In this document: positions 1 through 21,381 of the stretch, in pieces | Layout of the letters: each line of letters begins with the position of its first letter | Numbering within the stretch: position 1 is the first letter of the stretch | Assembly: GCA_964481885.1 (NCBI GenBank) | Contig: CAYZUS010000010.1 | Span: forward strand, 20,426-72,347 | DNA from: an uncultured Actinomycetota bacterium | Lineage (GTDB): Bacteria > Actinomycetota > Humimicrobiia > Humimicrobiales > Humimicrobiaceae | DNA: 51,922 nucleotides | Direction: 5' to 3' | Notes under the pieces: model-generated | Seen by the model: the letters and a program-made list of their open reading frames with translations, nothing else | Database searches by the model: none | Told to the model about the DNA's origin: nothing | Made by a program: the position numbers and the translations under genes

Positions 1-471
1 GGCTTTGGTTTTTCCTCGGTGCTTGACCCGATTAATAATTCCAATACTACTGTGACATCAGATTTTTATACCATTATTGCAACCACACTTTTTTTTACGA
101 TTGGCGGGCACAGGACACTGATAACAGGTATCGCGCAAAGTTATACACTTGTGCCGTTAGGCACTTTTACCATAAACTCCACCAGTATGCAGATGCTGGC
201 AAGGTCTTTCTCAGAAATATTTTTAGTCGCATTAAAAATTGCAGCTCCCTTAATGGCCGCACTTTTTCTTACAGAGGTGGTGCTTGCGCTTCTTTCCAGG
301 GCAATCCCGTCAATGAATATCTTTGTGATTGGTTTTCCCATAAAAATTGCAGTTTCGGTCCTTATAACCGGATTTACCCTTGTTAATACTGTTCCGTATT
401 TTGAAGTACTTTTTAAGGACAGCTTTATCAACATTGATTATTTTTTAAAAGCGATGCGCCTGAGGGGATAG
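1..471 (+). CDS. fliR: Flagellar export apparatus membrane protein FliR, C-terminal part (5' end upstream of window)
   Basis: Frame open from base 1 (GFGFSSVLDP...). Polytopic hydrophobic protein directly upstream of flhB-flhA in the canonical fliR-flhB-flhA order. TAG stop at 469-471. Confidence 0.85.
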   Translation, partial: GFGFSSVLDPINNSNTTVTSDFYTIIATTLFFTIGGHRTLITGIAQSYTLVPLGTFTINSTSMQMLARSFSEIFLVALKIAAPLMAALFLTEVVLALLSRAIPSMNIFVIGFPIKIAVSVLITGFTLVNTVPYFEVLFKDSFINIDYFLKAMRLRG

Positions 472-483
472 TGAGCTTTAAAT

Positions 484-1551: not shown

Positions 1552-1587
1552 ATAGTTTTTAAAAAATAGAAAGCGGCAAAGAAGTAT

Positions 1588-3816: not shown

Positions 3817-4152
3817 ATGGCAGAAAATCCTATTAAGAACTTCCAGGATGATGAGGATGATAATAACGATATGGAAGAAAATAATGAAAACGCTGCCGGG
3901 GCAAATAAGCCGGGAGAATTTAACGCGCCCAATGATACGGACAGCCCGCCGTCAAAACCGAGTGTCAAAATAAATATGGTGAATTTTAAATGGCACTGGG
4001 TGGCCGTGTTTGCAGTGGCCGTCATTGTGATTTATCTAAGCCTTCTAAATGGCGTATCCCTCGAAACTGCTCTGATAAGGGCCCTGTACAGTACTGCAAT
4101 TTTCTGGGTTATTGCCGAGGTCGTAGACTGGGTAATTCATAAGATGAAATAG
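3817..4152 (+). CDS. Hypothetical small membrane protein (acidic disordered N-terminus, two C-terminal hydrophobic helices)
   Basis: 111-aa ORF with RBS-like GAGGTG 7 nt upstream of the ATG. I recognise no family. Confidence 0.5.
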   Translation: MAENPIKNFQDDEDDNNDMEENNENAAGANKPGEFNAPNDTDSPPSKPSVKINMVNFKWHWVAVFAVAVIVIYLSLLNGVSLETALIRALYSTAIFWVIAEVVDWVIHKMK

Positions 4153-4253: not shown

Positions 4254-5117
4254 TTACTCTTTTTTATATGCCAAGGTCCCGGGAAATAAGAATAATTTAA
4301 AATCAGGTGTCACTCCGTGCAGCGACTCCTCTTCGCCAAGGAACAGAAATCCTCCAGGCTTTAGTAAAGAATAAAGGTTTTCGGCCAACAAAGTCTTATA
4401 CTGTTTTTCATAAAAAAGCATTATATTCTTGCAAAATATTAAATCATAAAGATTTAATGATTCTTTTCTGCATGGGCTGAGAAAATCAAAATTTAAAAAT
4501 GAGACAGCATTCAAATAATCATCTTTTATTCTGTATTCAGTTTCACTGCTTTTTAAAAAATATTTTTTTACATCGGCGGCATCCATATTCTGGAGATATT
4601 TTTTATTATAACTGACATCGGATGGTTTTTCTGCAGCGTTTACATCCAGATTACAAGCCTGTATCTGAAAGGACCAGTCGGGTTTTTTATTTCGGAAGGC
4701 ATTTTCCAAGGCAAAAAATACAGAGTAAGACTGAATAAGACTGCTTTTCCCGACTACCAAAGTGCTGATTATTTTGTCTTTCTGCCTTGAATAATTTTCG
4801 AAAATATCCGGAAGTATTTCACTTATTACAGCATCTGTCTGATCAGGAGAAGATTTGAAATAATATTCATTGAAATCCAGTATATCAAACAGGCTGTTTT
4901 TTTCACTTTCATATTCGAAATCTCTGCTGAGAAGGTAGAGATAATCGTTTATTGCTTTTAGGTTCAGCTGCTCCATTCTCTCGTGAAGTTTTGCTGTTAC
5001 TGATTCTTTTTTATCAAGATTAATGAAAATGCCATGTTCCTCATATAAATAGTTCCTGAATCCAAAGAAAAGTTTATCATTGTATTCCGAAATATCGTTA
5101 TTAATGTCTATACTCAT
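4254..5117 (-). CDS. CheR-like methyltransferase-fold protein with a degenerate SAM-binding loop
   Basis: CheR N-terminal helical pattern and C-terminal 'YDLIFCKNIMLFY...LLKPGGFLFLGEEESL'. The canonical 'WxAGCSTGEEAYS' is replaced by 'LVVGKSSLIQSYS'. Confidence 0.7.
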   Translation of the reverse strand: MSIDINNDISEYNDKLFFGFRNYLYEEHGIFINLDKKESVTAKLHERMEQLNLKAINDYLYLLSRDFEYESEKNSLFDILDFNEYYFKSSPDQTDAVISEILPDIFENYSRQKDKIISTLVVGKSSLIQSYSVFFALENAFRNKKPDWSFQIQACNLDVNAAEKPSDVSYNKKYLQNMDAADVKKYFLKSSETEYRIKDDYLNAVSFLNFDFLSPCRKESLNLYDLIFCKNIMLFYEKQYKTLLAENLYSLLKPGGFLFLGEEESLHGVTPDFKLFLFPGTLAYKKE

Positions 5118-5311
5118 CTGCTTATTCCTGTTTGACTATTAAAATGTTTAATGAAAAATTAAATGGTCCAAATAACCGCACGATCTCCGTTGACCTTAAT
5201 CAACTCCGGCAAACCCAACCACCTCAACCAAATCATACAATTCCACCGAAACAAACAATCCAATTAATATTATAAAAAATGTATTCAGAAAACTTCCCAA
5301 AGAAGCATTGC

Positions 5312-6205
5312 TTAAAAAAACTTTGACGAATACATTTTTATTACGTCATGAGAGTTTTTTAAATCATCGTCCACCTCAAAAAATATTTTTTCGATATCTA
5401 TTTTTTTAAAGTAAGGTGAGCTCTTTTCCAGATTCATCCAACCCTGATTATTTTTAATATCCATTCCTTTGCTGGATTGGACGACTCCAATTTTTTTGGC
5501 ATTAGTAAGAAGATCTGCAAGTTTTATTATTGATATCATGCTGGTGTCATTGATATCTGTTAACTCGCTGTGATGATATTTTATGGCATCTGATATATTA
5601 TCTGGGAAATGCCATATTTTTGACAGCATCCCGCCTATCTCTGCATGGTCTATTCCCAATATCTGTCTTTCAGCCTCATAGAAGAAAATATTCTTTTTCC
5701 TTGTTTCTTTAATAACTGCCAGAAACTCAACATGCGCATACTGGTCAAGGCAAATCTTGCCAATATCATGTAAAAGCCCGCATATAAATGGGCTTGAACT
5801 GAATTCGATATTTAAAACCTGCGCAAGCTTATTTGCAGTAATTGCAGTCATTATTGAATGTTTCAGATAGTCTGCTTTGTCAAAAGCATATTCTCCGTCC
5901 TGGGGAAACAGCTTAAAAAGCGACATCATGAAAACTATGTTTTTGATCTCTCTAAGTCCAAGTATTATCAGTGCGGAATCAAGTGAGCCGACATTCTTTT
6001 TCAGGCCGTAAAATGCCGAGTTGGCCACTTTCAATATACCTGCTGTAATAGAAGGATCTCTTGAGACAAGGTCAGATATCTGTTTCATTGACCTTATATC
6101 ATTTTCAGACATGCCCATAATTTCAAAAGCAATATCCGGCAGTATAGGCAGCGAGTCGATTTCAAGCATTTTTTCAAGTATTCTTTGTCTTGTGTCTCTT
6201 ATCAT
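5312..6205 (-). CDS. HDOD domain signalling protein
   Basis: 'LPILPDIAFEIMGMSENDIRSMKQISDLVSRDPSITAGILKVANSAFYGL' plus the HD-like 'GLLHDIGK' is typical of the HDOD family. Confidence 0.8.
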   Translation of the reverse strand: MIRDTRQRILEKMLEIDSLPILPDIAFEIMGMSENDIRSMKQISDLVSRDPSITAGILKVANSAFYGLKKNVGSLDSALIILGLREIKNIVFMMSLFKLFPQDGEYAFDKADYLKHSIMTAITANKLAQVLNIEFSSSPFICGLLHDIGKICLDQYAHVEFLAVIKETRKKNIFFYEAERQILGIDHAEIGGMLSKIWHFPDNISDAIKYHHSELTDINDTSMISIIKLADLLTNAKKIGVVQSSKGMDIKNNQGWMNLEKSSPYFKKIDIEKIFFEVDDDLKNSHDVIKMYSSKFF

Positions 6206-6253
6206 TTTAGTTTAAAAAATCATGTTTATTAAAGTTTATTAAAACATAAAATG

Positions 6254-6721
6254 TTATTTTACTTTATAGCTGAATTCAATATAAAATTTTCCGCAATCGA
6301 CCTCAAAAGGTATTACAATAGGCTCCATCTCGTTTAGAGGCGGTATTTCAAAATCTTTTCCCTGTATAACCAGGGGAAGAGATAAAGCCATTTCCTCACC
6401 GGTGATAAGCGCTATCTCATTTTTCATTCCGCCGGCTACCATATTGGATATTTCGCCGATGGCGTCGTTTACATCTCCATCAATTTCTTTATATTCCATT
6501 CCAAGCATGTTTGAAGTTACTTTTAACGCAACAGCCTTTTCAAAATGCGACAAAACAGACATTGTAACCTTACCGGTCAAACCCATTATACCTGTTATTT
6601 CACTGCGCAGTTTTATTTTGTCTTTATTAAAAGGAAGGCTGTCCTTAGGGTCCATCATTATCATTGTACCAAAAACATCTTTGACTATCTTTATGATTGC
6701 TGCTATATATTTTTCTTTCAT
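6254..6721 (-). CDS. cheX: CheY-P phosphatase CheX
   Basis: 155 aa. 'ALKVTSNMLGMEYKEIDGDVNDAIGEISNMVAGGMK' closely parallels the Thermotoga/Borrelia CheX ExxN active-site helix. Confidence 0.88.
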   Translation of the reverse strand: MKEKYIAAIIKIVKDVFGTMIMMDPKDSLPFNKDKIKLRSEITGIMGLTGKVTMSVLSHFEKAVALKVTSNMLGMEYKEIDGDVNDAIGEISNMVAGGMKNEIALITGEEMALSLPLVIQGKDFEIPPLNEMEPIVIPFEVDCGKFYIEFSYKVK

Positions 6722-6859
6722 ACGGCTCCCAACATATTTTATGCCTCTGCATTTTTTTATTTTTTTTGCGTCTCAGGATATCTTTACTTTATTCCAATAT
6801 AAAAAGTTTAGTTAGTATTACAATTTTATGTTTTATCCTTTGCGTTTTATACTATTTTT

Positions 6860-7237
6860 TTATGACCCAAAACATCTGTCTATTTTTTTCTCAAGAGCTA
6901 TGGATGTGAAGGGTTTTGTAATATAGTTATCCACACCATTATCCATAGCTTCCTCCATTTTGCCGGTACTTCCCTCAGTTGTTATCATCATTATAACAAT
7001 CTTTTTTTTCGTTCTTATGGCTCTTACTTTTTTTACAAATTCAAGTCCGTCAAGGTTTGGCATGTTCCAGTCACTTAAGATCAGGTCAGTTTTACCTGGA
7101 TTAAATACTTTTAACCCCTCCACTCCGTCTCCTGCTTCAGTTATGGTGGCATCAGCATACTTGCCCTCTTCAATTGCCCGTTTTATTATTTTTCGCATTA
7201 CTGCAGAATCATCAACCACAAGTATATTGAGCCCCAT
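6860..7237 (-). CDS. cheY: Chemotaxis response regulator CheY
   Basis: 125-aa single REC domain: 'VVDDS', 'SDWNMPNLDG', 'ITKPF'. Confidence 0.9.
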   Translation of the reverse strand: MGLNILVVDDSAVMRKIIKRAIEEGKYADATITEAGDGVEGLKVFNPGKTDLILSDWNMPNLDGLEFVKKVRAIRTKKKIVIMMITTEGSTGKMEEAMDNGVDNYITKPFTSIALEKKIDRCFGS

Positions 7238-7310
7238 AGTTACCTCCCATAAAATTAAATCAATAAAACCAATAAAATAATATTTATTTTATATTATTAT
7301 TCATTACATT

Positions 7311-7338
7311 ATATCGGAATATTTTAAACATAAATTTA
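7311..7338 (-). promoter_or_regulatory. Sigma-28 (FliA)-type promoter candidate for the cheY-cheX-HDOD-cheR-like operon
   Basis: The minus strand reads TAAA-N16-TCCGATAT (consensus TAAA-N15-GCCGATAA/T), 74 nt upstream of the cheY ATG. Confidence 0.5.
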
Positions 7339-7781
7339 ATTATTTTTTTCAATAATATATTCAAATATATTTTAACATAATTAATTATTATTTCAAATTA
7401 TCCCGATATATTTTCAATATTTGGAATTACTGCCATATAAGCTGAATCTGAGCCATTGGGCAGATTTTTCAGCAGTAATTTACCTGATATTATATGTATA
7501 GTTGCTTTGGAAACAGTTCAGGCAATCGGGCATTGCCTTGCACCGATAATGCTCAGGAAACGTTTTTGAAAGGATAATATTGGTAATATTGGCATTGTTA
7601 TTTTGGAAAACAAGCTGTTGGTCAGGTATGGATATATTGAGATTTTAGTTGCAGAATGGCCCACAGTTAATCTTAAGAATTCAATAAAGATTTAAATATT
7701 GATTCAAAAATATCTTTAATAAATGATGAATAATATTTATAAACATTTTTACAAATTTTATTTTACTATTTTAAATAAAAT

Positions 7782-7789
7782 GCCGATAA
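7782..7789 (+). promoter_or_regulatory. Sigma-28-type -10 box GCCGATAA upstream of the chemoreceptor operon
   Basis: 8/8 match to the -10 consensus, 83 nt upstream of the ATG at 7872. No convincing TAAA -35 at the expected spacing. Confidence 0.4.
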
Positions 7790-7871
7790 ATTCTATAAGT
7801 TAAATACATTTATGTGTTTAAGATGTTTCTATGAAAAATAGAAAAAATAAAAAAGAGAAAAAGGAGTCGAA

Positions 7872-9809
7872 ATGGCAATTACAGCTGATAGAAAATTAGC
7901 CAGGCCGGGATCACAGTCCATGGATCTTGCAAAAAAGGAAGACCTGACTGAGAGAAGGGACGTAGCCAAAAAGCTTGCCCAGGAAAAAACAAAAGCCAGA
8001 ACGCTTGCCAAGACACAGCAGATAGCTGAAAGGCTCGCAGCAGCAACAGAACAGTCTGCTTCAAGCATCCAGGAAATAAGGGCAAGTGCAGAAGAGCTTG
8101 TTTCAGCAGTGGACCAGGTTTCCAATGCAGTGGAACAGGTTTTAAGTGAAGTCGAACAGGCAGAGGTTGTTATTAAAGCAGGAAACGTGGCAGCCAAAGG
8201 CGCTGATGTAAAAGCATCATCTGCTGCAAATTATGCTGAAACCATTGCCAAACTGCTAAACAAGAATATTGCAGATATTAATGTGGCAATTGAAGGTGTG
8301 CAAAAAGCTGCGCAGTTAAATGCGGAAGCTGTTAAAAGTGGTAATGAACTTATAAAACAGGGTGAAGAAATCGGTGAAATAGTCCAGTCTGTAACCCAGA
8401 TTGCTGACCAGACAAACCTGTTGGCACTAAATGCTGCAATAGAAGCAGCGCGTGCAGGTGAGCATGGCCGTGGTTTTGCTGTTGTTGCTGATGAAGTAAG
8501 AAACCTTGCAGAGGTCAGCGAAAAATCAGCAAGACAGATAAACGAGCTGGTTGAAAAAGTCCAGAACAGCATAAAAGAAGCTGCAGAAAAGGTTACAAAA
8601 ACCGGAAACAATGCCCAGAAAGCAACCACGGAGGCTGGAGAAATTGCATTAGGTCTCGGTACAATAATTGCTGCAGTAAATGACCTTCAGTCAGTTGCAA
8701 AAGAAGTGGCCACACAGTGCAGAGAAATGAGCGCCCTTATGGGTGATCTTACTTCTACTACAGGCTCAATAACTAAAAATACTGAGGAAGTAAGCACAGC
8801 CATAAAGCAAATTGATGCCTCACTCAGGGAGCAGACAAAAGCATTTGCAGATATTGAAAAAGCATCTGATGAGCTGGTTGAAATGGCTGACAGGATCAAG
8901 ACCTCCACGACCGATAACAAAGCCGCTGAAGAAATAGCTGCATCATCTGAAGAACTTTCTGCAACAATAGAAGAGACAAATTCAAGCATGGAACAGATTG
9001 TCACAGGCATTACCCAGGTGGCAAAAGGCGCAAGTGGTGTTGCCGAAGGAACTGATACTGCAAACGAACAGGCAAAGACAATAGGTACCCAGACAAATTT
9101 TGTAAGAGAAAGCGCCGAAAAATTTGCAAAAGTTTTGCAGGCCAATGAGACTGATTACAGCAAAGCAAAAGATGCATTTACAGAAATTGTCAAACAGGTC
9201 GGTGATATGGGAAATGACAACCTCACAGTAGCAACAGAACTTGCAACACTTGTTTCCGATTTAAGAAATATTTTAAAGATTGTTGATAATATAACAATGG
9301 TAGCTGTACAAACCAACCTTCTTGCCGTAAATGGTTCAATTGAAGCTGCAAGGGCAGGAGAATACGGCCGTGGATTTTCAGTTGTAGCCGCAGATGTTAG
9401 GACCCTGGCAAATGAATCTTCCGAAGCTGCTGACAAGATCCAGGCTATGATACAGAATGTTGAAACACAGATAATCCAGGTTACAGACGATGTAAGAAAA
9501 GCCGGAGATTTGGCAATTGAACAGCAGAAAAGAGGAGTTGTAATTCTTGAAGATGCTGAAGTAATAATAAAAACTTCGGGTGAAGCAACCGGTGTTGCCA
9601 ATGAGGTTGAAGCCGCAGCAGTCGAACAGGTAAAAAGAGTCGAGCAGGTAAGCAAAGCAACCGAACAGATAGCAGCCGCAGCAGAAGAGGCATCATCCGC
9701 AGTAGAGCAGTCAACCAAGGCAGCAGATGAACAGAAACGTGCCATGAATGAAATAGCTGAGGCAGTTGAAGAGATAGCCGGAATAGCTGACGAACTCCAG
9801 GCTCTGTAG
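7872..9809 (+). CDS. Soluble methyl-accepting chemotaxis protein with two tandem signalling (MA) domains
   Basis: AAGGAG RBS and no TM segments. There are two hairpin-tip motifs: '[35 protein letters not shown]' and '[36 protein letters not shown]'. Confidence 0.9.
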
Positions 9810-9873
9810 AATTTTTAGCTAGACTAAAGATTCCTGTAATAATTTTATTTAATTATTGAATTGGAGTATTTAT

Positions 9874-11967
9874 ATGATTGAGACAATGGAAGAAATAAAA
9901 ACTGAAAAGCAGGTGAAAAACGTCGCTAAGAAGGAAAGGGAGCTGGTCATATTTAAACTCGGAGACGAAGAATTCGGTGTAAGTATTGAATACGTCAAAG
10001 AGATTGTGAAACTGCCGGAAATTACCCTGATTCCTAACAGCATAGATTACATAGCAGGTATATGTAATCTAAGAGGCAGCGTATTGCCTGTAATTGATAC
10101 AAGGATAAGGTTTAACCTCTCAAAAAAAGAAACAACCGCACAGACAAGGCTGCTGGTTGTCGATTTGGGTGGGGAAACAACGGGCCTGATTGTTGATGCC
10201 GTATCACAGGTATTAAGCATCAGTGAGGATATCGTGGACCCGGCTCCGAGAGCGGCGGCGGGCATTGATAAAGATTTCCTTGATGGTGTCGTAAAGCTTA
10301 ATGACGGGAAAAGGCTCGTTTTGCTTCTAAATCTTACAGAAGTATTTTCGGCCCAGACTGAAAAAGCCAAAGTAAAAGGAAAAACAAGCTATGGGATGAA
10401 AAACGAGACAGAAGAGTCCAATCTGGCAAAGCAGGCCATGGACGAAGAGCAGCTTGTATCATTTCTTTTATCTGATGAGGAATATGCTTTTGATATTGAC
10501 AGTGTAAGGGAAATATTAAGGGTCATAGAAATAACGGAAGTTCCTAATGTTCCAAATTATGTACTCGGCCTTTTAAACATAAGGGACCAGATACTGCCAA
10601 TACTTGACTTAAGGACAATGCTTTCAATCAAGCATCTCGGTAAAGAATTATATGATGTTCTTGATGAAGTAAAAACTGTTCATAATGAATGGGTATCTTT
10701 GCTTGAACAATGTGTCAATGACGGCACTGGCTTTTCCGGCCAGAAAGATCCTCACTTTTGCAGGCTCGGAATGTGGATAGAAAGCTTTAAGAGCAATAAC
10801 AATAACTTAACAGCAATGGTGGCCAAGCTTGTCGAACCGCATAATGCGCTCCATAGTTATTCAGACGTGGTGACAGCCGAAGCGGCAAAATCAAAAGAGG
10901 GCGCACTCAAGATGATAAATGACAAAGTTATCCCGCTGAAAAACAACATACTGGATACATTTACAAAGATTGTTGAGAGTTTTTATTCTACAATCAAAGA
11001 CGAACAGAGGATACTTGTTATAGAATCAGCCGGTACGACCATAGGACTTGTTGTTGACCATGTAAATGAAGTAGTAAGGATACCAAAAAATATTATTGAT
11101 GAGACCCCTTCAATAATTGCTTCTTCAGGCAAGGAGATAAGCGGCGTTGCAAAGATGAACGGCGGCAAAAGAATAATCATGATAATGGATGAAAAAACAC
11201 TTTTTAAAGGTGATAAACAAATGTTAAACGAGATGGCCAAAGGCAGTTCAGGATCGGATAAGAATGTTTCAGAAGCAAAAAAAGATCTGGACGAGGATCA
11301 GTTCGTGACATTTAAAATTGGAAATGAGGAGTATGGCGTACAGATAATGAAGGTTCAGGAAATAAACCGCCTTTCAGAAATCACCTCTATTCCAAAAGCT
11401 CCATATTTTATTGATGGAGTTACCAATTTAAGAGGCAATGTCATCCCTATCATTGATATAAGAAAAAGATTTGCCATGGATATCAAAACAGACGATTACC
11501 GAACAAGAATTATTGTAGTCGATATCGCAGGAAAAAAGACGGGCCTTAAAGTCGATATGGTAAACGAAGTACTGCGCCTTTACAGAAGTGATATTGAAGA
11601 AGCACCGGGCATCATTTCAACTAATGTTGATTCTGATTTCATTGAAGGAATAGGGAAAATCGATAATGGTAAGAGGATGATAATACTTTTAAATGTTGAA
11701 AAGATCCTTACCAATAAGGAAATCGATGCTTTAAAGTCAATGGACAAGAGTGATTCATCAGAGAAAAATGTAAAACCTCAGGCAAAAAAAGAAGAGCCGG
11801 TGGAAGAAGTAAAACAAAAAAGCCAGGCATTAGAAATTTCTGAGGAGAAATCTGAAGAACCGGAAGCAATAGCAGAACCTGTAAAAGCTGTAAGCGCAAA
11901 AAACGGTGCAAAGAAAAAAGCTGCAGATGACGATGACAAGGATACGGGTTTTACAATGTCTGAATAG
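9874..11967 (+). CDS. Multi-domain CheW scaffold (three CheW domains, a CZB-like insertion in the second, K/E-rich tail)
   Basis: Three 'xFxLGxEEYGVxIxxVxEI...NLRGxVxPxIDxR' units. I prefer the ATG at 9874 (GGAG 8 nt upstream) over the TTG at 9856 in the ORF track. Confidence 0.85.
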   Translation: MIETMEEIKTEKQVKNVAKKERELVIFKLGDEEFGVSIEYVKEIVKLPEITLIPNSIDYIAGICNLRGSVLPVIDTRIRFNLSKKETTAQTRLLVVDLGGETTGLIVDAVSQVLSISEDIVDPAPRAAAGIDKDFLDGVVKLNDGKRLVLLLNLTEVFSAQTEKAKVKGKTSYGMKNETEESNLAKQAMDEEQLVSFLLSDEEYAFDIDSVREILRVIEITEVPNVPNYVLGLLNIRDQILPILDLRTMLSIKHLGKELYDVLDEVKTVHNEWVSLLEQCVNDGTGFSGQKDPHFCRLGMWIESFKSNNNNLTAMVAKLVEPHNALHSYSDVVTAEAAKSKEGALKMINDKVIPLKNNILDTFTKIVESFYSTIKDEQRILVIESAGTTIGLVVDHVNEVVRIPKNIIDETPSIIASSGKEISGVAKMNGGKRIIMIMDEKTLFKGDKQMLNEMAKGSSGSDKNVSEAKKDLDEDQFVTFKIGNEEYGVQIMKVQEINRLSEITSIPKAPYFIDGVTNLRGNVIPIIDIRKRFAMDIKTDDYRTRIIVVDIAGKKTGLKVDMVNEVLRLYRSDIEEAPGIISTNVDSDFIEGIGKIDNGKRMIILLNVEKILTNKEIDALKSMDKSDSSEKNVKPQAKKEEPVEEVKQKSQALEISEEKSEEPEAIAEPVKAVSAKNGAKKKAADDDDKDTGFTMSE

Positions 11968-11974
11968 CTTAAAC

Positions 11975-12010
11975 ATTATTGTTAAATGAGTAAACGCCTT
12001 TAACAATAAT
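11975..12010. other. Perfect 12-bp inverted repeat (ATTATTGTTAAA / TTTAACAATAAT, 12-nt loop) between cheW-like and cheB
   Basis: Read directly. AT-rich stem with no U-tract, so at most an intra-operon RNA structure. Confidence 0.3.
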
Positions 12011-12076
12011 AAATGAGCAATTCAAACTGAAGAGTGGATTTTTTAGTAAAAGTATTTGGAAAAGCTATTTTAGACA

Positions 12077-13192
12077 ATGTATACAAAACAAATAAATGTA
12101 TTGATTTGTGATGACTCTGCATTGATGCGGAAGATTTTAAGATCAATAATAGAAGAAGATCCTGGGCTTGTTGTTATCGGGACAGCAAGGGATGGGTTGG
12201 ATGCTGTAGAAAAAGCAAGAGACCTCAAACCTGATGTAATAACGATGGATATCAACATGCCCAGGCAGGACGGCATCACTTCGATGCAGCAAATAGTTTC
12301 TGAAGGACTTGCTCCTGTGATTATGCTTTCGTCACTTACCCAGGAAGGCGCCATGGCGACTTTTGAAGCGTTGGAACTGGGAGCTTTTGATTATGTTGCA
12401 AAACCCGGCGGTACGATTTCTACAAACTTAGATGTGATATCAGACGAATTAAGATCAAAGATAAAGGCTGCTGCCACTTCAGATGTTTTAAGAAAGTTAA
12501 GAAAGAGCACAGACTATTATGAAAGCGTAAGAAACAGATCTGACAGACAACTGAAAAAAGAAAAAGACAGAAGCGCTCTTTCAAGAATTTTAACACAGAG
12601 AAAAGGAGCAGGTCTTGGATATAAGGCGGTAGCAATAGGCATCTCCACAGGCGGGCCTAAAACAATTTTAAATGTACTGCCTTATCTGCCGAAAGATTTA
12701 AATGCTGCAATATTTCTGGTGCAGCATATGCCGCCTAATTTTACGGCAACATTTGCTGCAAGGATCAATACTGCATCTGAAATGGTGTGTGTGGAAGCTG
12801 AAAATGGCATGCTGGTAAAACCGGGCGTCATATATCTGGCAAGAGGCGGTCGGCACCTCACCCTTTTTAAAAAAAGTACCGGAGAAATAATAATAAGAAC
12901 ACCTGACAGGCCTGAGCATCTTTTTGTACCTTCGGTGGATGTTATGATGCAGTCAGTACTGTCAACTTACAAGGCGGACACAGTGGGAGTTATCATGACA
13001 GGAATGGGTCATGACGGAGCAGCGCAGATGGCCAAAATAAAGGAGGCAGACGGAATTACGATCGCTGAAAGTGAGGAAAGCGCAATAGTTTTCGGGATGC
13101 CTGCTGAAGCAATCAAGCTTGGCTGTATTGACAGTATTCTGCCATCATGGAAGATAGCTGATGAAATAATAAGATCCGTGAAAAGTAACTAA
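12077..13192 (+). CDS. cheB: Chemotaxis methylesterase/deamidase CheB (REC + esterase)
   Basis: REC 'LICDDS...MDINMPRQDG', with esterase catalytic motifs 'GISTGGP', 'VQHMP' and 'GMGHDGA'. Confidence 0.95.
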   Translation: MYTKQINVLICDDSALMRKILRSIIEEDPGLVVIGTARDGLDAVEKARDLKPDVITMDINMPRQDGITSMQQIVSEGLAPVIMLSSLTQEGAMATFEALELGAFDYVAKPGGTISTNLDVISDELRSKIKAAATSDVLRKLRKSTDYYESVRNRSDRQLKKEKDRSALSRILTQRKGAGLGYKAVAIGISTGGPKTILNVLPYLPKDLNAAIFLVQHMPPNFTATFAARINTASEMVCVEAENGMLVKPGVIYLARGGRHLTLFKKSTGEIIIRTPDRPEHLFVPSVDVMMQSVLSTYKADTVGVIMTGMGHDGAAQMAKIKEADGITIAESEESAIVFGMPAEAIKLGCIDSILPSWKIADEIIRSVKSN

Positions 13193-13207
13193 AAAAAGGA
13201 AATTGGA

Positions 13208-14293
13208 ATGGACATAGAAAAATTAAGAGAAAAACTACTATCTTCAGAAAAATCAGATGTTTCTGAAGCGCTGGATATAATATATGAAGATGAAATTATC
13301 GAGCTTGCAGACGTGATGGTCGATGTTTTAAAGAGGGAGACCTCCCGTGCCATGAGGGAAAAAATACTTGTTACGATCGGCAAATTATTTAACAAGCTTG
13401 GTTCTTTTAACAAACTTGGCTTTGAAACAATAAAACAGATGTTTTTTGCTGAGGATGCTTTTATAAGAAACGGAATAATCTCACTTATCAAAAGAAGTGA
13501 CGGGACGGATTACTCACACTTAAGAGAATTATCAAGATGCAACGACAAGGACATCAGAAAATTTGTAATCGATGCTTTAAGTAATGACAACTGTGCCCAA
13601 TCCATTGAAATAATACATGAGCTTTTAACAGATGAAGATATCAATATCAGGATAACTTCAGTTGATTACCTGGGGGATTTCAAGACCGAGCAGTATTGCG
13701 ATGAAATTACAGATATCTTTTTAAATACAGATAACCCGATGCTGAAAATATCCTGCCTTGAATCTGTTGCAAAAATCGGGAAAAAACCCAAAAAATTTGA
13801 CCTGGTTTATAAGGAGCTTACTGAAAAACCGAATAACCTGATGATATTTTCGTTTTTAAAAATTCTGGGAGCTTTCGGAGGAGAGGAATCTTTTTCCTTC
13901 CTTGAAAATATATTACTGGATGAGAAAACCTTTTTTTTGAAGAATGTAATTGATGCAGTTGAGTCAATTCTGGTAAATAGTGATTTAAAAATGCCGGACA
14001 ATTTGAAAAATGCCTTTATAAAAAGAGTTGATACTGCATCAAGCAATGACAAATATGAGATTATGAAACTTCTGGCTAAAGATGATGGTGACGAGATGTC
14101 GCAGAATGCCAGAGAAAACCTTAAAAGTGAAGATGAAATGATACTGCTTTCGGCAATTGAGATACTTGCAGATACCGGCAGTCTTTGCGACATTGACAAA
14201 CTTGAAGATGTGGCCTCTGAGTCTGAGTCTGATGATATTCTTGAAGCTATAGGCGACGCCGTGATGAAAATTAAAGCAAGATTAAAACAATAA
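13208..14293 (+). CDS. HEAT/PBS-lyase-like repeat protein embedded in the che operon
   Basis: Repeated ~30-aa helical units ('DKDIRKFVIDALSN', 'DEDINIRITSVDYLGD', 'NPMLKISCLESVAKIG'). AAGGA RBS. Confidence 0.6.
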   Translation: MDIEKLREKLLSSEKSDVSEALDIIYEDEIIELADVMVDVLKRETSRAMREKILVTIGKLFNKLGSFNKLGFETIKQMFFAEDAFIRNGIISLIKRSDGTDYSHLRELSRCNDKDIRKFVIDALSNDNCAQSIEIIHELLTDEDINIRITSVDYLGDFKTEQYCDEITDIFLNTDNPMLKISCLESVAKIGKKPKKFDLVYKELTEKPNNLMIFSFLKILGAFGGEESFSFLENILLDEKTFFLKNVIDAVESILVNSDLKMPDNLKNAFIKRVDTASSNDKYEIMKLLAKDDGDEMSQNARENLKSEDEMILLSAIEILADTGSLCDIDKLEDVASESESDDILEAIGDAVMKIKARLKQ

Positions 14294-14317
14294 TAAACAG
14301 AAAATAAACACAGCAAA

Positions 14318-15157
14318 ATGGAAGAAATAAGTTTTTCGGAATTTATAAATTTAAGAAATTTTATTTATGAGAGTACCGGTATTTTTTTCGAAGAGAAAAA
14401 AATATATTTTATAAAAAAAAGGGTTGAAAAAAGGCTCATTGAATTAAACCTTGATTCCGCTGCTACTTACCTGAGGATGCTAAAGACTTCCAGGGAAAGT
14501 TCAAAAGAGCTGCAGACTTTGACAAATCTGCTTACAACCAATGAGACATATTTTTTCAGGGAATACGATCAGCTTGCAGTATTTGGAGAACACTGCCTTA
14601 CTGAGATTATTGAGGACAAAAAGAAGAAATTTGTCAGGAATTTAAATATCTGGTGCGCCGGCTGCTCAACCGGAGAAGAGGCTTATACATTATCAATAAT
14701 ACTCCAGGAAATGCTTCCCAATTTAACTTATTGGAACATAATTATTTATGCAACGGACATAGACACTGAGGTCCTTCAAAAGGCAAAAGTCGGGCTGTAT
14801 TCGGACCGTTCCGTAAAGGACGTGCCGCAGGAATATCTGGAGAAGTATTTTACCAGTGAAGGGGACGAGTGGAAAGTCTCAGAACAGGTCAAAAAATATG
14901 TAAAATTTTTAAATATAAATCTTATAGACGACTTTAAAATGAGGGCATTTAAAAGTATTGATTTTATATTCTGCAGGAATGTTCTTATATATTTTGATGA
15001 AGCTTCAAGAAAGCGTGTTGTCGGTAATTTTTTTGAAAGTTTGAATAAGGGCGGATATATTTTTCTTGGACATTCTGAGTCAGTAAGCAGGATATCAACT
15101 GCATTTACAACAAAAAGAAAAGGTGATCTGATTGTTTATCAAAAGACTGAGGTGTAA
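14318..15157 (+). CDS. cheR: Chemotaxis methyltransferase CheR
   Basis: 'NETYFFRE', 'IWCAGCSTGEEAYTLSIIL', 'ATDID', 'FIFCRNVLIYFD', 'LNKGGYIFLGHSES'. Confidence 0.93.
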   Translation: MEEISFSEFINLRNFIYESTGIFFEEKKIYFIKKRVEKRLIELNLDSAATYLRMLKTSRESSKELQTLTNLLTTNETYFFREYDQLAVFGEHCLTEIIEDKKKKFVRNLNIWCAGCSTGEEAYTLSIILQEMLPNLTYWNIIIYATDIDTEVLQKAKVGLYSDRSVKDVPQEYLEKYFTSEGDEWKVSEQVKKYVKFLNINLIDDFKMRAFKSIDFIFCRNVLIYFDEASRKRVVGNFFESLNKGGYIFLGHSESVSRISTAFTTKRKGDLIVYQKTEV

Positions 15158-15162
15158 ATAAT

Positions 15163-15531
15163 ATGAAAAAAGTTTTAATTTGTGATGATTCTGAAATGGT
15201 GAGAAATTTTCACTATTACATATTAAAAACTGCAGGGTTTGAAGTCATATCCGCCATAGATGGCGCGGATGGCCTGGAGAAGCTTTGGCTCAACAAAGAT
15301 ATCGGGCTTGTAATAACAGATATAAATATGCCAAATATGGACGGATATTCCATGATTGAAAAAATAAGGATGGAAGATGAATTTGAGGATATACCCATCA
15401 TTATTATTTCCACAGAGGATCAGCTTAAAGACAAACAAAAAGGGTATGATGCAGGTGCCAATATTTATATAGTCAAGCCTACTGCTCCTGAACAGCTGGT
15501 TGAAAGTGTAAAGCTTTTAATGGAAGAATAG
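15163..15531 (+). CDS. cheY: Chemotaxis response regulator CheY (second copy)
   Basis: 122-aa REC: 'LICDDS', 'TDINMPNMDG', 'IVKPT'. GAGGTG RBS. Confidence 0.9.
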   Translation: MKKVLICDDSEMVRNFHYYILKTAGFEVISAIDGADGLEKLWLNKDIGLVITDINMPNMDGYSMIEKIRMEDEFEDIPIIIISTEDQLKDKQKGYDAGANIYIVKPTAPEQLVESVKLLMEE

Positions 15532-15785
15532 GGTTGGAAATCAGCACAGACGGTTCTTTATGCAGAAACAGGCAGACGCACATCTCTGGCAGGCAGCAAG
15601 CAGTATTTTAAGGGTACATTTTAAAGAGCCGGAGCCTTAAATTAAAATCAGAGCCCCTGATAAAAAAGGGCATGCGGGGGCATACAGGTGAAATTAAAAT
15701 TAGTCGTTCTTTAGTACAAAGAATAAATAACACGCATTTATACAAAGCCAAAGCAACCAAACAGGTAAAAAGGTAAAATCTTAAA

Positions 15786-18374
15786 ATGGAACTTAATGTA
15801 GACAAAGGCGATCTGGAAATTTTAGCAGGATTTATTGAAGAATCCATTGAACATTTTGAAGGTATAGAAGAAAAGATACTTCAGCTGGAGCAATCAAGAG
15901 ACAGCGAGCTTATAAACAGTATTTTCAGGTCAGTTCACACAGTGAAAGGAACCTCCTCATTTCTGGGCCTGAAAGAAATCGAGTATTTCAGCCATAAGCT
16001 TGAAACGCTTCTTGATGAAGTCCGAAATAACCGCATCGAGATTAACTCTGACATTATAGACATACTTCTTGAGGGTGCCGATATCCTTTTTAAAATGATA
16101 CTTGAATTAAAGGCGGCACTTAACAGCCCGGACTCACAAACTGATAAGGAAGGCAAAGTTGTACTGAATATAAAAGAGGTTGATTTTTCTGAATCGGAAA
16201 CAAAGATAAAAGAACTGCTGGCAAGTACGGAAAAAACACTTGAAACTCCGGCAGCAGCAAAAGAAAAAGTGGCAGCCGAACCACCAAAAGAAAAAACATC
16301 TGTCAAATTTGAATTCGATAAAAGCCTTAAAACCGATTATATACAGGAAGCCGAAGAGCATGTTACAAATATAGAAGAACTGCTTTTAAAACTGGAGACA
16401 AATAATAAAGACTTTGAATTGTACAACGACCTGTTCAGGGCGCTGCACAGTATCAAAGGAAATACGGACCTCGTAATTTCGACAATAACTGATGAGGAGC
16501 AAAAGAAAAGCCACCCCCTAAACTACATGAGGGAGATTGCGCATAAAGCCGAAAGCATTATTCAGCTAAAAAGAGACAAAAAAAATCCTATAAATTTACC
16601 GGAATTTGACCTGTTTTTTTCAGCCTGTGATGCTTTAAAAATACTTTTGGGTGAATTTAAAAATGGTAAAGGTTTAAACTTTAATCCTGTGGCGGTCATA
16701 GAGAATTTAAAAAGCGCCAGTGAAAGCAAGAAAGATCCAAAGGGCAAAAACGATAATGCAATTCTGGAGAATGTTTTTAACAGCGCACAGTCAGCTACAG
16801 AATTTGCAGTGGCAAATACAATAATTCAATGCATAGAAGCATTTGCAGACGGGATAGATGGCCTTAATGATATCGAGAAGATGGACAAATCCCAGAAAAA
16901 AATCAGCCGAAGTTTAAAGACTCTTTTAAACCTCGGTAAAAAAATATCTCATACTCTTCTAATTGAGACGAGTGAAAAATCAATCGAGCTGATTAACATT
17001 TTTTCAGATCCTGAATCAGATGATGTTGAAAAAAACCGTATCATAACAGAGCTTGCTAATAATCTTGACACATTAAAAGAAAAAGGTGAAAGAAGAAAAG
17101 CTTCAGTAACTGCTCAAAAAGTTGCTGGCGAGCAGGAAGATGCTGAGAAGGGTCCTGATAAAAAAACAGAGTTAACAACCATAAAGGTACCGCTTGAAAG
17201 ACTCGATAAAATGATGAACCTTGTCGGTGAGCTCGTGGTATTTAAGAATAATTTCCAGTATGTTTACAAAGAGCTTTCTGTCATAGATAATATCGGATCC
17301 ATTAATAAAAAAATAAAAAACATTGGAGATTCATTAAGCAGAGTTTCAGAAGAACTTCAGATTACCATCATGTCGGCCAGGATGATCCCTGTTAACAGTG
17401 TGTTTTCCAAGTTCCCCAGAATGGTAAGGGACCTTTCCAAGAAAATGAACAAGAAAATAAATCTTGTAATAGAAGGCGAGGAAACAGAGCTTGACAAAAC
17501 AGTCATAGAAGCAATAGGCGACCCAATGGTCCACCTTATAAGAAATTGCGTCGATCATGGCATAGAACTGCCGGCTGATCGCCAAAACTGTGGCAAACCT
17601 GAAGAAGGGACCATCAGGCTGAAAGCGTATAATTTTGGCCAAAGCGTAATAATAGAAATAATTGATGACGGGAAAGGTGTTAACCCCGAAGTCATAAGGA
17701 AGAAAGTACTGGAAAAGGGCCTGCTTTCTGAAGAAGTTTTAAACAAGATGTCGGAAGGCGATATTAAAAATCTTATCTTCCTGCCGGGATTTTCAACTGC
17801 TGCGGCTGTAACTGAAGTGTCGGGCAGGGGCGTAGGTATGGATGTGGTTAAAACCAACATTGAAAAAATAGGCGGTTCTGCAAGGCTTGAAAGCGAATTG
17901 GGCGTTGGAACGACAATTACCCTTGTACTGCCACTGACTCTTTCAATAAGCAGGGGACTAAATGTGGAGTGCTGCGGCCAGAATTTCTATCTCCCACTGG
18001 ATTATGTAATAGAGACTGTAAAAATCCCTGTTGACAGTATAGTAAAACACAAGGATATGGAAATCATTATGATAAGGGACAAGCTCGTGGCATTTTTCAG
18101 GCTGGAAAAATTGCTTGGCCTGGCAAGAAATAATGGAAATAATAAGGACGAGGCAGCTTCGGGCAGTAAAAAAAGTAATAATTTAAATGTCGTAATGCTG
18201 GAAATAAATAATAACACAATCGCAATGGAAGTGGACAGAGTTCTTGATGAAAGCAGCTTTATGGTAAAGCCATTAACAGGCATCGTCAGTAATATTGAAG
18301 TTGCTTCCGGGGCAGTTATTAGTGCAAAAGGTGATCTTATACTTGTACTTAATCCCCCATTATTATTTGCCTAA
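15786..18374 (+). CDS. cheA: Chemotaxis histidine kinase CheA with two HPt (P1) domains
   Basis: Two HPt boxes ('FRSVHTVKGTSSFLG' and 'FRALHSIKGNTDLV'). Also has P3 'IKVPLERLDKMMNLVGELV', P4 'HLIRNCVDHGIE...DDGKGV...GRGVGMDVV' and a C-terminal CheW-like P5. Confidence 0.95.
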   Translation: MELNVDKGDLEILAGFIEESIEHFEGIEEKILQLEQSRDSELINSIFRSVHTVKGTSSFLGLKEIEYFSHKLETLLDEVRNNRIEINSDIIDILLEGADILFKMILELKAALNSPDSQTDKEGKVVLNIKEVDFSESETKIKELLASTEKTLETPAAAKEKVAAEPPKEKTSVKFEFDKSLKTDYIQEAEEHVTNIEELLLKLETNNKDFELYNDLFRALHSIKGNTDLVISTITDEEQKKSHPLNYMREIAHKAESIIQLKRDKKNPINLPEFDLFFSACDALKILLGEFKNGKGLNFNPVAVIENLKSASESKKDPKGKNDNAILENVFNSAQSATEFAVANTIIQCIEAFADGIDGLNDIEKMDKSQKKISRSLKTLLNLGKKISHTLLIETSEKSIELINIFSDPESDDVEKNRIITELANNLDTLKEKGERRKASVTAQKVAGEQEDAEKGPDKKTELTTIKVPLERLDKMMNLVGELVVFKNNFQYVYKELSVIDNIGSINKKIKNIGDSLSRVSEELQITIMSARMIPVNSVFSKFPRMVRDLSKKMNKKINLVIEGEETELDKTVIEAIGDPMVHLIRNCVDHGIELPADRQNCGKPEEGTIRLKAYNFGQSVIIEIIDDGKGVNPEVIRKKVLEKGLLSEEVLNKMSEGDIKNLIFLPGFSTAAAVTEVSGRGVGMDVVKTNIEKIGGSARLESELGVGTTITLVLPLTLSISRGLNVECCGQNFYLPLDYVIETVKIPVDSIVKHKDMEIIMIRDKLVAFFRLEKLLGLARNNGNNKDEAASGSKKSNNLNVVMLEINNNTIAMEVDRVLDESSFMVKPLTGIVSNIEVASGAVISAKGDLILVLNPPLLFA

Positions 18375-18526
18375 ATGACTAAAGATTTAAAAAACAGTTT
18401 TTTCAAATCTGTTTTTATTCCGTCCGACTGTGGATCTACTCAGGATCAGATCAGGTTTTAATCCCGGCTTTTTAAGGCAGTGGCGGAATATTTAATTACC
18501 GGGGTTTTATACAAGAAGCCGATTTT

Positions 18527-18534
18527 CCGATAAC
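18527..18534 (+). promoter_or_regulatory. Weak sigma-28-like -10 box TCCGATAA upstream of the kinase-J-domain gene
   Basis: 7/8 match, 117 nt upstream of the ATG at 18651. No clear -35. Confidence 0.25.
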
Positions 18535-18650
18535 ATGATACCCACAGACTTTGTCCTTTTAATTATTTCCAAACTATTGTATTTATACTAAGATATAATT
18601 CAAAAATATATTTCAAAATTGTTTTCAAAACCCGATTGCATTTTGTTTTT

Positions 18651-20315
18651 ATGAAAGATAAATTTTTTTCTTATTATGAGATCCTTTCCGAAGGAGAAGT
18701 AGGCAACACTTACACCGTTTATAAAGCAAGGAACATAAATAACGGCCAGCCTGTAACTGTCAAATTCCTTAGGGGGGATCTTTCACTGGATAAAAATATC
18801 CTTGAGAATTATTTTATCAAGGAAGTTGAAAATTTCAGGCTGCTTGTACATCCTAATATATTAAAAATACTGGATTACGGTAAGGCAGAATCATCCTACT
18901 ACCTGGTCTATGAATTCTTTGAATCACGGACCCTTCTGGATATTTTTAAAGCCAAAGAGGTGCTGCCTACAGCTACAATTGAATACATGGCAAAACAGAT
19001 AATACGTGGGTTAAATTATGCAGCCGGCAATAATGTACTTCACAGGGACCTAAAACCTTTAAATATACTTGTAGGCGAAGGAGGAAGAGTAAAGATATCA
19101 GATTTCAGTATTCTGGAGAGTTCTATTTCAAGGGCGCTTTCAAATACTGTCACTGCAAGAAGAACGCTTTTTTTAGGTTCACCCTGCTACATTTCTCCAG
19201 AGCAGGCCCTGGGTTTAAAAATTGACTTCAAGTCAGACATTTATTCTTTTGGAATTCTTCTTTTTGAGATGCTGACCGGAAAAACTCCCTTTAACTCCGA
19301 TACTTCCTGGGGGCTGCTATACAAACATATTAAAGAAATACCTCCGGACCTTAAAAAAATAAAAGACAACATTCCGGAGTATTTAAATTATATTTTTAAA
19401 AGATCTCTTTCAAAATCACAGGCCAAACGCTTTAACAGCTATGAGGAGATCCTGAATATACTCAGCATTAAAAATTACGACCCGGATGAGTTTTTGGAAA
19501 AAGAAAAAAGCTCTATTGTGGAACGAATAAAGCTTTTTGATGATTCTGGCTTATTCGAAATTGAGGAATTAAAGTCAATAATAAACGAGAGAAAAAAGTT
19601 TTTCGTTGACCTGGTAGAGGAAGTTGAAGACTTAAAAACTGACCTGCTATTTATAAAAAGGGAGTATGACCTCAGGATCGAAAAACTCTACCTGGATATG
19701 GAGTACGCAGATTTAAAAATACTGGAGTTCAAAAAGATTATCAGGATGAAAAACAAGGGATTTTCCGAGGTTAGCGCCAAGAGATCAGTTCGGGAAAAAA
19801 TAAAGGAACGTTTTGATGAACTTGAAGGCAAATATAAAGTAATAGATGATGAGACCAAGATCGAGAAAGATTTAAAAAATGTTTACCAGATAGAACGCAG
19901 CGGTATTAAAAAAATCTGGAAGCAGCTTGCTCTGAAATATCATCCGGATTTCGCAAAAAACAATGAAGAAAGAGAAATTCTTGAAAAGATAATGAAAAGG
20001 ATCAACACTGCTTATGATAAAAATGACATAAAAATATTAAGTACTTTTAAAAAGATTGATTTTTTTGTTGACGGTGAAAATGATACTGTCCAAAGCTTAA
20101 ACAGGAAACTTCTTTCCATAAACAAATCATTAAAGCTTATTATTGAGGAAGAAGCCCAATTAAAGAAATCTGAATGGTTTTCATGGAGGGAAGATATGAA
20201 CAGGGCAACACTGGTGGGAGAGGACCTCTTTGTAGAGCTCGAGAAAAATTTAAGCCAGGACATACTTTACAAGGAGAGATACCTGGAAAAATTAAAATCA
20301 GGGCTTAAAAATTAA
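18651..20315 (+). CDS. Hanks-type Ser/Thr protein kinase with coiled-coil middle region and C-terminal J-domain
   Basis: Kinase motifs are 'GEVGNTYTVYKA', 'VTVKF', 'HRDLKPLNILV', 'ISDFS' and 'SPCYISPEQ'. The J-domain reads 'IKKIWKQLALKYHPDFAKNNEEREILEKIMKRINTAYD' (HPD). I prefer the ATG at 18651 over the TTG at 18636. Confidence 0.8.
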   Translation: MKDKFFSYYEILSEGEVGNTYTVYKARNINNGQPVTVKFLRGDLSLDKNILENYFIKEVENFRLLVHPNILKILDYGKAESSYYLVYEFFESRTLLDIFKAKEVLPTATIEYMAKQIIRGLNYAAGNNVLHRDLKPLNILVGEGGRVKISDFSILESSISRALSNTVTARRTLFLGSPCYISPEQALGLKIDFKSDIYSFGILLFEMLTGKTPFNSDTSWGLLYKHIKEIPPDLKKIKDNIPEYLNYIFKRSLSKSQAKRFNSYEEILNILSIKNYDPDEFLEKEKSSIVERIKLFDDSGLFEIEELKSIINERKKFFVDLVEEVEDLKTDLLFIKREYDLRIEKLYLDMEYADLKILEFKKIIRMKNKGFSEVSAKRSVREKIKERFDELEGKYKVIDDETKIEKDLKNVYQIERSGIKKIWKQLALKYHPDFAKNNEEREILEKIMKRINTAYDKNDIKILSTFKKIDFFVDGENDTVQSLNRKLLSINKSLKLIIEEEAQLKKSEWFSWREDMNRATLVGEDLFVELEKNLSQDILYKERYLEKLKSGLKN

Positions 20316-20368
20316 ATCATAAAAGGGACCGTAACAGATTCTGGGCGAAACTGGATTGTTGTCAGATT

Positions 20369-21373: not shown

Positions 21374-21381
21374 TTATCGGC
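21374..21381 (-). promoter_or_regulatory. Sigma-28-type -10 box GCCGATAA (minus strand) upstream of the HD-GYP gene
   Basis: 8/8 match on the minus strand, 163 nt upstream of the ATG at 21211. No clear -35. Confidence 0.35.

Follow-up and report, generated by a model that had tools for sequence, protein, structure and literature searches.

Here, we analysed a 51,922-nt stretch of DNA from an uncultured Actinomycetota bacterium (contig CAYZUS010000010.1, positions 20,426 to 72,347; hereafter the window, along which all coordinates are given), in which a block of chemotaxis (che) genes follows a set of flagellar export genes. Pfam scans combined with an open reading frame (ORF) map of the window gave the domain content listed below. 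We conclude, with a probability of about 80%, that these genes encode a complete chemosensory system of the F9 class, of the type known from Vibrio cholerae cluster I, together with the two-layered array and the outputs that we propose for it further on. The genes and features of the locus are as follows:

19-3675: FliR', FlhB and FlhA, just upstream of the che genes
3817-4152, plus strand: small ORF of 111 aa with an acidic low-complexity N-terminus and one transmembrane (TM) segment
4254-5117, minus strand: degenerate CheR-like protein (Pfam CheR, 90 bits)
5312-6205, minus strand: HDOD protein (Pfam HDOD, 185 bits)
6254-6721, minus strand: CheX, CheY-P phosphatase (Pfam CheX, 86 bits)
6860-7237, minus strand: second CheY, of the DWNMP type, first gene of the divergent operon (Pfam)
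7238-7871: divergent intergenic region, 634 bp, with sigma-28-like -10 boxes
7872-9809, plus strand: DosM-type soluble receptor, 645 aa (Pfam MCPsignal, two stretches)
9856-11967, plus strand: CheW3, 703 aa (Pfam CheW, 331 bits in four stretches, plus CZB)
10636-11004, plus strand: CZB four-helix-bundle insert in the second CheW domain (W2) of CheW3, aa ~261-383 (Pfam CZB)
12077-13192, plus strand: CheB methylesterase with a receiver domain (Pfam; position conserved in F9 loci)
13208-14293, plus strand: HEAT-repeat protein (Pfam HEAT_2), the non-Che gene ('.') of the F9 operon
14318-15157, plus strand: active-type CheR methyltransferase (Pfam CheR, 202 bits; 'AGCSTGEEAYT' intact)
15163-15531, plus strand: CheY-like receiver, the F9 'Y' (Pfam; DD, D53, T/S and K residues present)
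15786-18374, plus strand: CheA, 862 aa, with two histidine phosphotransfer (Hpt, P1), dimerisation, ATPase and P5 domains (Pfam)

The F9 class has two signature proteins, DosM, with two tandem signalling domains, and CheW3, a concatenated triple CheW; 98% of DosM homologues carry no sensor domain, and additional receptors are expected by the authors of the survey (PMC9321776). The gene order of the class has been published as 'MWB...RYA' and, for 72 species, as [DosM W3 B. R Y A], often followed by '.Y', 'YX' or 'YXX', the CheY-CheX pair ('YX') being present in many F9 clusters (PMC9321776 S6 Table). The plus-strand operon of the window reproduces this order gene for gene, with the CheW3 gene directly downstream of dosM and the HEAT-repeat protein at the position of the '.'. 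A scan of 185,579 species genomes with the CheW3 alignment yielded 78 further loci, which we mapped by phmmer with the window proteins. The arrangement DosM-CheW3-CheB-HEAT-CheR-CheY-(CheY)-CheA is found in ~55 of these (~60 counting local rearrangements), the others being mostly contigs that end early, and the phyla represented include Desulfobacterota, Acidobacteriota, Verrucomicrobiota, Planctomycetota, KSB1, Fibrobacteres, Calditrichaceae and Firmicutes. The same order was also seen in two gene-context look-ups and on a plasmid of Methylosinus OB3b. Most of the 78 loci have a HEAT homologue between CheB and CheR, at the position held by the 'hypothetical' VC1400 in V. cholerae and by a gene with a HEAT-repeat annotation in Methylosinus trichosporium OB3b. 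Homologues of the CheA, CheB and CheR of the window lie, in the fetched loci, in operons linked to DosM and CheW3. An NCBIfam scan of the locus returned only generic Che names and nothing extra.

In V. cholerae cluster I, the F9 type example, cryo-electron tomography (cryo-ET) has revealed a two-layered cytoplasmic array in which the DosM protein VC1403 spans two baseplates of CheA and the triple CheW VC1402 (PMC7534058). Its genes run from DosM (VC1403) and the triple CheW (VC1402) through CheB (VC1401), a hypothetical protein (VC1400), CheR (VC1399) and CheY to CheA (VC1397). Common to both clusters are the soluble receptor with a doubled signalling domain and no sensor, the concatenated triple CheW, the order DosM-W3-B-(non-Che gene)-R-Y-A, an extra CheY and the solubility of all components. 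The cluster of the window differs in that it adds a divergent CheY-CheX-HDOD-CheR-like operon and adjoins flhBA, and in that no MCP gene flanks it. The intact CZB inside W2 of its CheW3 is noted here apart from this likeness.

The receptor is made up of two MCP signalling domains in tandem and lacks a TM segment, a sensor and any other Pfam domain, and its most hydrophobic 19-residue window (KD19) reaches 1.46. Its hairpin tips read RAGEHGRGF (aa 194) and RAGEYGRGF (aa 494); the 300 aa between them come close to the 308 aa of 44 heptads, a heptad class gauged by spacing alone. Because exactly this tip-to-tip spacing is shared by 66 of 79 receptor homologues, the length of the rod is conserved to the residue. 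Two or three tandem DosM-CheW3 gene pairs occur in a single cluster at four of the mapped loci (L035, L037, L078 and L080). In CheA, the H-x-x-K-G motif is present in both Hpt domains (HTVKG at aa 51, with H51, and HSIKG at aa 221, with H221), and the doubled motif recurs in the F9-linked CheA proteins of seven other loci (L011, L014, L053, L061, L063, L075 and L077); an extra structured insertion in CheA-F9 has been noted in a 2026 preprint. The maximum 19-residue hydrophobic window is at most 1.6 in every che protein of the locus, and the 52-kb window holds no further MCP-signal ORF.

The composition of the locus thus largely agrees with the original prediction, which was made from the sequence of the window: all the parts that it had listed were recovered by Pfam at their positions. 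The sensor-less double-hairpin soluble receptor is there, with its two MCPsignal stretches, two tips and no TM or other domain, as is the double-HPt CheA, and the proposed absence of a transmembrane receptor from the window was confirmed. The complete F9 gene set, free of TM-like segments in its che proteins, also supports the self-contained soluble cluster, of the kind that builds a membrane-free array, that had been postulated. One active and one degenerate CheR had been claimed, and indeed the SSGEE motif is of the intact type in 14318-15157 and lost in 4254-5117. A divergent region with sigma-28-like boxes next to flagellar export genes was likewise found (FliR'-FlhB-FlhA lies upstream; the boxes are described below). 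The proposed covalent triple CheW with a CZB domain needs a correction: the domains and the intact ligands on the scaffold stand, but the CZB is not appended to the protein and lies inside W2.

CheW3 comprises W1 (aa ~27-164), W2 (aa ~197-255 and 385-449) and W3 (aa ~480-631), followed by a low-complexity tail. Its AlphaFold2 (AF2) model contains three CheW folds (three beta-barrel pairs), and the top Foldseek matches of the model are CheW structures. Pfam reports four CheW stretches because the CZB insert splits W2: the N-terminal half-barrel ends with '...LPILDLRTMLSIK', and the barrel restarts at 'RILVIES' (aa 385). Both the alignment and the AF2 model therefore place the CZB inside the second CheW domain and not as a terminal fusion. 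A protein search returned 609 CheW3 homologues. Identity to other F9 CheW3 proteins is at most 47%, excepting two metagenomic relatives, P0001 (91%) and P0002 (61%), which are the closest homologues and keep all four zinc ligands.

The insert is modelled as helices 261-289, 303-310, 316-345 and 347-383 with a pLDDT of ~90, and scores 31.6 bits in the whole protein and 35.4 bits in isolation against Pfam CZB (PF13682; cut-off 29.4 bits), a family that is also matched by 16 of 16 inserts of the HCHH type, i.e. those with the full His-Cys-His-His set. A single-sequence search of the insert alone against the PDB gave chance matches only (e.g. Cas8 at E 0.1). A profile of the 16 HCHH-type inserts has the CZB of DgcZ (3T9O) as its top PDB match (E 2.7e-6), with H276, C302, H329 and H333 aligned to the His, Cys, His and His of that domain, and the four ligands are invariant across the alignment of the 16. 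The best non-CheW Foldseek match of the model is again 3t9o_B (probability 1.00, TM-score 0.67, E 0.047). As judged from sequence and model, the insert is a genuine CZB with an intact 3His/1Cys site, and binding of Zn2+ is predicted.

The CZB of the window shares its four-helix bundle with those of DgcZ (YdeH, PDB 3T9O) and Helicobacter pylori TlpD, including the layout with a His in helix 1, a Cys in the short turn before helix 2 and HxxxH in helix 3, a likeness that concerns sequence and model and not reactivity towards Zn or HOCl. Identity to DgcZ is ~12% in the structural alignment, and the domain is embedded in a CheW loop, whereas the known examples lie N-terminal to GGDEF or C-terminal to a receptor. 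Proteins of the 'CheW-CZB' type, which make up 1.4% of CZB proteins and are most abundant in Clostridia (Perkins et al. 2021, mBio; PMC8262984), resemble CheW3 of the window in that CZB is fused to CheW-like domains and the zinc motif is conserved; in addition, motif position 2 in most members of that class is not the Arg typical of soluble receptors. Unlike them, the window has its CZB inserted in the second of three CheW domains, a type found mainly in Desulfobacterota-like lineages. Muok et al. (2023; PMC10653840) list 2xCheW, 3xCheW and CheW-CZB among the known architectures and propose that sensing via CheW-fused domains may be widespread. Their Treponema denticola CheWS, a CheW-CheR-like sensor of S-adenosylmethionine (SAM), provides a precedent for a sensor domain on a CheW scaffold: the sensor lies below the baseplate and is proposed to modulate CheA. 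It differs from the present case in carrying a CheR-like sensor instead of a CZB and a single CheW domain, and in being part of an F2 array bound to the membrane. In the F9 survey, the sole CZB domains recorded are those of two DosM homologues (PMC9321776), and within the literature that we searched CheW-CZB is mentioned only by Perkins et al. 2021 and Muok et al. 2023 and nowhere linked to F9 CheW3, so that the association of a CZB-fold insert with F9 CheW3 may have gone unremarked so far.

An insert of ~120 residues is widespread among CheW3 proteins, being present in ~105 of 120 database homologues (~87%) and in 72 of 83 CheW3 ORFs of genome loci. The full H-C-H-H set was found in about a fifth of them, namely 27 of 121 database homologues and 11 of 83 locus ORFs. 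The replacements of the ligands recur as E-T-R-Y, H-T-R-F and Y-gap-N-x, with W279, G305 and W307 kept, and are specific to clades: ETRY and HTRF occur in Desulfobacterales-type sequences and Y-gap-N-x in Acidobacteriota and Verrucomicrobiota, with FCHH and HC[D/E]H in other CheW3 homologues. The Firmicutes CheW3 proteins examined (~490 aa) have no insert. Neither does the F9 CheW3 of M. trichosporium OB3b (511 aa), and that of Acetobacteraceae metagenome-assembled genomes (MAGs) has a degenerate one, so that the alphaproteobacterial state is mixed. A Photobacterium match in PLSDB proved to be an F6-type single CheW. The subgroup with an intact CZB contains this window, some Desulfobacterota, including Electrothrix, and a Thermodesulfovibrio MAG. 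In several of the HCHH-type clusters of Desulfobacterota (L001, L008, L013 and L022), a short CheA (~560 aa) and a receiver lie between CheB and the HEAT gene, and more CheA genes follow the main one.

In a neighbour-joining (NJ) tree of the CheW columns, calculated without support values, ligand-complete forms sit on several deep branches and degenerate forms are nested within them, a pattern that would fit an ancestral zinc site lost repeatedly, although it is suggestive only. Because the insert is widely kept and its ligands are mostly lost, its conserved role is likely to be architectural and not zinc sensing, and zinc or redox sensing would possibly be confined to the ligand-keeping minority, the window included.

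The minus-strand genes add to this core a set that belongs only in part to the F9 class. CheX is also matched by the NCBIfam model CheX_Thtogales, at 65 bits and thus under that model's cut-off, and the minus-strand CheY holds the same divergent position in L083, a 91%-related metagenomic contig. Neither the HDOD nor the CheR-like gene has a counterpart within 10 kb of CheW3 at any of the 78 loci, and the published F9 gene lists contain neither (PMC9321776 S6 Table). The CheR-like protein has the CheR fold (CheR_N and the SAM-binding domain, Pfam 90 and 28 bits; PDB CheR matches at E 1e-14) and is 25% identical to the active paralogue 14318-15157. It has ~10 close metagenomic homologues in the protein database (67-75% identity), and a metagenome scan with this protein retrieved no relatives. 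Nucleotide-binding motif I (A-x-C/S-S-x-G-E-E-x-Y; SSGEE) is lost in the window protein and in 7 of 7 aligned close homologues: the active paralogue and distant homologues read 'AGCSTGEEAYT' and 'GHSES', the CheR-like protein 'VGKSSLIQSYS' and 'GEEES', and its close homologues have 'GKSSLIQSYS' or similar in place of SSGEE, with GxSES lost too. Both motifs act in SAM binding, as seen in the Salmonella CheR structure. Since both are lost in the window and in the seven close homologues, the protein is probably a conserved, non-catalytic CheR derivative.

Two relatives separate these genes from the F9 cluster. L084, with 80-85% DNA identity and synteny on either side, is missing the entire segment from cheX through to the Ser/Thr kinase gene behind cheA (window ~6321-20378 versus L084 7455-8943), and still keeps the HDOD gene and a CheR-like gene, split into parts of 178 and 110 aa, next to flhA. 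In this lineage the F9 cluster is thus a presence/absence segment of ~14 kb, to which the Ser/Thr kinase gene also belongs, in agreement with the frequent horizontal transfer reported for F9 (PMC9321776). L084 carries a second HD_5 gene in place of the segment. On a JGI contig that encodes P0123, the module flhA - small TM ORF - CheR-like - HDOD - CheX - CheY is present beside a divergent operon CheB-HEAT-HDOD-CheR-CheY-CheA(657 aa)-PilZ-CheW(160 aa), a set of adaptation and kinase genes that resembles F9 but includes neither DosM nor CheW3. Because they are kept in L084, which has no F9 cluster, and stand beside another che operon on the P0123 contig, the HDOD and CheR-like genes are assigned to a lineage-specific, flhA-adjacent backbone of the flagellar locus and not to F9. 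The 111-aa ORF between flhA and the CheR-like gene matches no family; its position is kept in both relatives (112 and 111 aa).

In the divergent intergenic region, an exact GCCGATAA lies at 7782-7789 on the plus strand, 82 nt upstream of the receptor ATG and with no good -35 element, and cheY is preceded, on the minus strand, by TAAA-N16-TCCGATAT. The window contains six copies of GCCGATAA, where 1.25 are expected. The same divergent layout is found in L083, where both -10 boxes are conserved, the dosM box GCCGATAA being kept as ACCGATAA. The window has an extra, relatively GC-rich segment of ~210 bp (7437-7646) that is absent from L083, with flanks that are ~90% identical; it contains an ACCGATAA box. 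We considered this segment as an RNA element, for which there was no Rfam match and a fold z of -1.1, and as a miniature inverted-repeat transposable element (MITE), for which no convincing terminal repeats were found, and rejected both on this evidence.

Directly 3' of cheA, on the same strand, lies the gene for a Ser/Thr protein kinase with a C-terminal DnaJ-like J-domain fragment (18636-20315, plus strand). It is followed by an HD-GYP-type (HD_5) protein with an N-terminal hydrophobic segment (20369-21211, minus strand; KD19 3.07), which has an exact sigma-28-like GCCGATAA at 21374-21381 (minus strand), ~160 nt upstream of its start, and may be a flagellar-regulon phosphodiesterase of cyclic di-GMP (c-di-GMP). 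A GGDEF gene is located at 23696-24721. The region 26027-51876 encodes a GTP-dependent phosphoenolpyruvate carboxykinase (PEPCK), a DUF1015 protein, a NuoF-like/[FeFe]-hydrogenase set, a [NiFe]-hydrogenase set, a RuBisCO-like large-subunit homologue and HypD/HypE-like maturation genes. These hydrogenase, PEPCK and RuBisCO-like genes indicate, as far as gene content can tell, an anaerobic, hydrogen-cycling host. The closest relatives of FlhA are metagenomic; the nearest named ones, at 65-67% identity, come from MAGs labelled Actinomycetota, and identity falls to ~50% for Firmicutes and others. A spirochaete origin, considered because of CheX, finds no support among these FlhA relatives.

Building on the observed domain content, synteny and intact CZB site, we infer the array geometry, the motor output and any signalling by the CZB. 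By homology with the V. cholerae system, DosM dimers would be rods that bind the kinase at both tips and bridge two baseplates of CheA and triple CheW to give a two-layered array free in the cytoplasm. CheA, with its double P1, would phosphorylate the CheY proteins and CheX would dephosphorylate them; adaptation would be carried out by CheR, CheB and the conserved HEAT protein. The output would go to the flagellar motor, as suggested by the sigma-28-like promoters together with the position next to flhBA. Since DosM has no sensor, the input must enter through co-assembling soluble receptors encoded elsewhere, which is the published F9 view, through the CZB in W2, or through both. Because the full 3His/1Cys zinc site is kept, the CZB might signal Zn2+ or thiol oxidation to CheA by way of W2.

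Several points weigh against parts of this F9 reading. The class assignment draws on signature architectures and synteny, and motor control on promoter boxes and gene linkage alone; V. cholerae F9 has no known chemotaxis phenotype (PMC7534058). As regards the input, approximately three quarters of the insert-bearing homologues have kept the bundle without its zinc ligands, and no experimental test of CheW-CZB was found in the searched literature. Nevertheless, the assignment to F9 is far better supported than the proposal, advanced in the original prediction, of an undescribed variant with CheW as the point of entry for the stimulus and with the HDOD protein and the degenerate CheR as integral components. 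What speaks for such a variant is that the latter two are missing from the published F9 lists and from the surroundings of CheW3 in the 78 loci, and that an intact CZB sits on the scaffold. On the other hand, the core operon agrees in every gene with the published F9 order, also that of V. cholerae, and so the layout is not distinct from Vibrio cluster I, contrary to what had been supposed; the HDOD and CheR-like genes stay by flhA in L084 without F9 and lie beside a different che operon in another relative; and both CheW-CZB and 3xCheW have already been catalogued (PMC8262984, PMC10653840), as has the idea of sensing through CheW. Apart from the HDOD protein and the degenerate CheR, all parts thus belong to a class that has been characterised, its accessory genes included. 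Likewise, of the trio of double-signalling receptor, CZB-bearing multi-CheW and degenerate CheR that was to be sought in other genomes, DosM with CheW3 is found and the insert is common, but none of the 78 loci has the CheR-like gene within 10 kb of CheW3. Synteny has largely refuted the undescribed variant, which we regard as very improbable.

The role of the insert and the target of the output are less settled. At slightly worse than even odds, the system is F9 and the CZB insert is structural, e.g. a dimerising bundle that ties CheW3 together under the baseplate, with stimuli arriving via other soluble receptors that co-assemble with DosM. This would account for an insert that most CheW3 homologues keep with its fold-defining residues and about a fifth with its ligands, and it accords with cryo-ET of V. 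cholerae, where DosM forms every other trimer of dimers and other receptors are hence needed (PMC7534058), as well as with the prevalence of sensor-less DosM homologues, for which added receptors are expected (PMC9321776). It is at odds with the retention of all ligands in the window, P0001 and P0002, and with the intact sites on several deep NJ branches. Retention in the subgroup of the window argues for selection on metal binding, which could still be purely structural. That the CZB is a true input is somewhat less probable, and we consider it unlikely that, in the F9 subgroup with an intact CZB, the scaffold is the primary sensor, with zinc occupancy or Cys oxidation in the W2 bundle switching CheA. 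Similarly unlikely is an output that does not steer the flagellum and controls another process, such as a response in stress, c-di-GMP signalling or development, as is suspected of the conditionally expressed F9 system of V. cholerae, where motility is unaffected by deletion of cheA and expression is tied to stress (PMC9321776, PMC7534058). Such an output would be in keeping with the neighbouring HD-GYP, GGDEF and Ser/Thr kinase genes and with the presence or absence of the cluster among close relatives. Motor control fits better with a cluster that directly adjoins fliR-flhB-flhA, has sigma-28-like -10 boxes before both operons and encodes CheX and a DWNMP-type CheY, and 97% of F9-bearing species are flagellated (PMC9321776).

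The locus is, then, an ordinary member of a described class, whose less common feature is the intact CZB inside W2. The F9 survey states that arrays of sensor-less DosM must depend on other proteins for their signal (PMC9321776). Were the scaffold indeed the sensor, this would answer, for the subgroup with an intact CZB, what sensor-less F9 arrays detect, and the ligand-less inserts would be degenerate remnants kept for the architecture of the array. Ligand-complete in a definable minority that includes this locus, the CZB in W2 represents a testable candidate input for F9 arrays.

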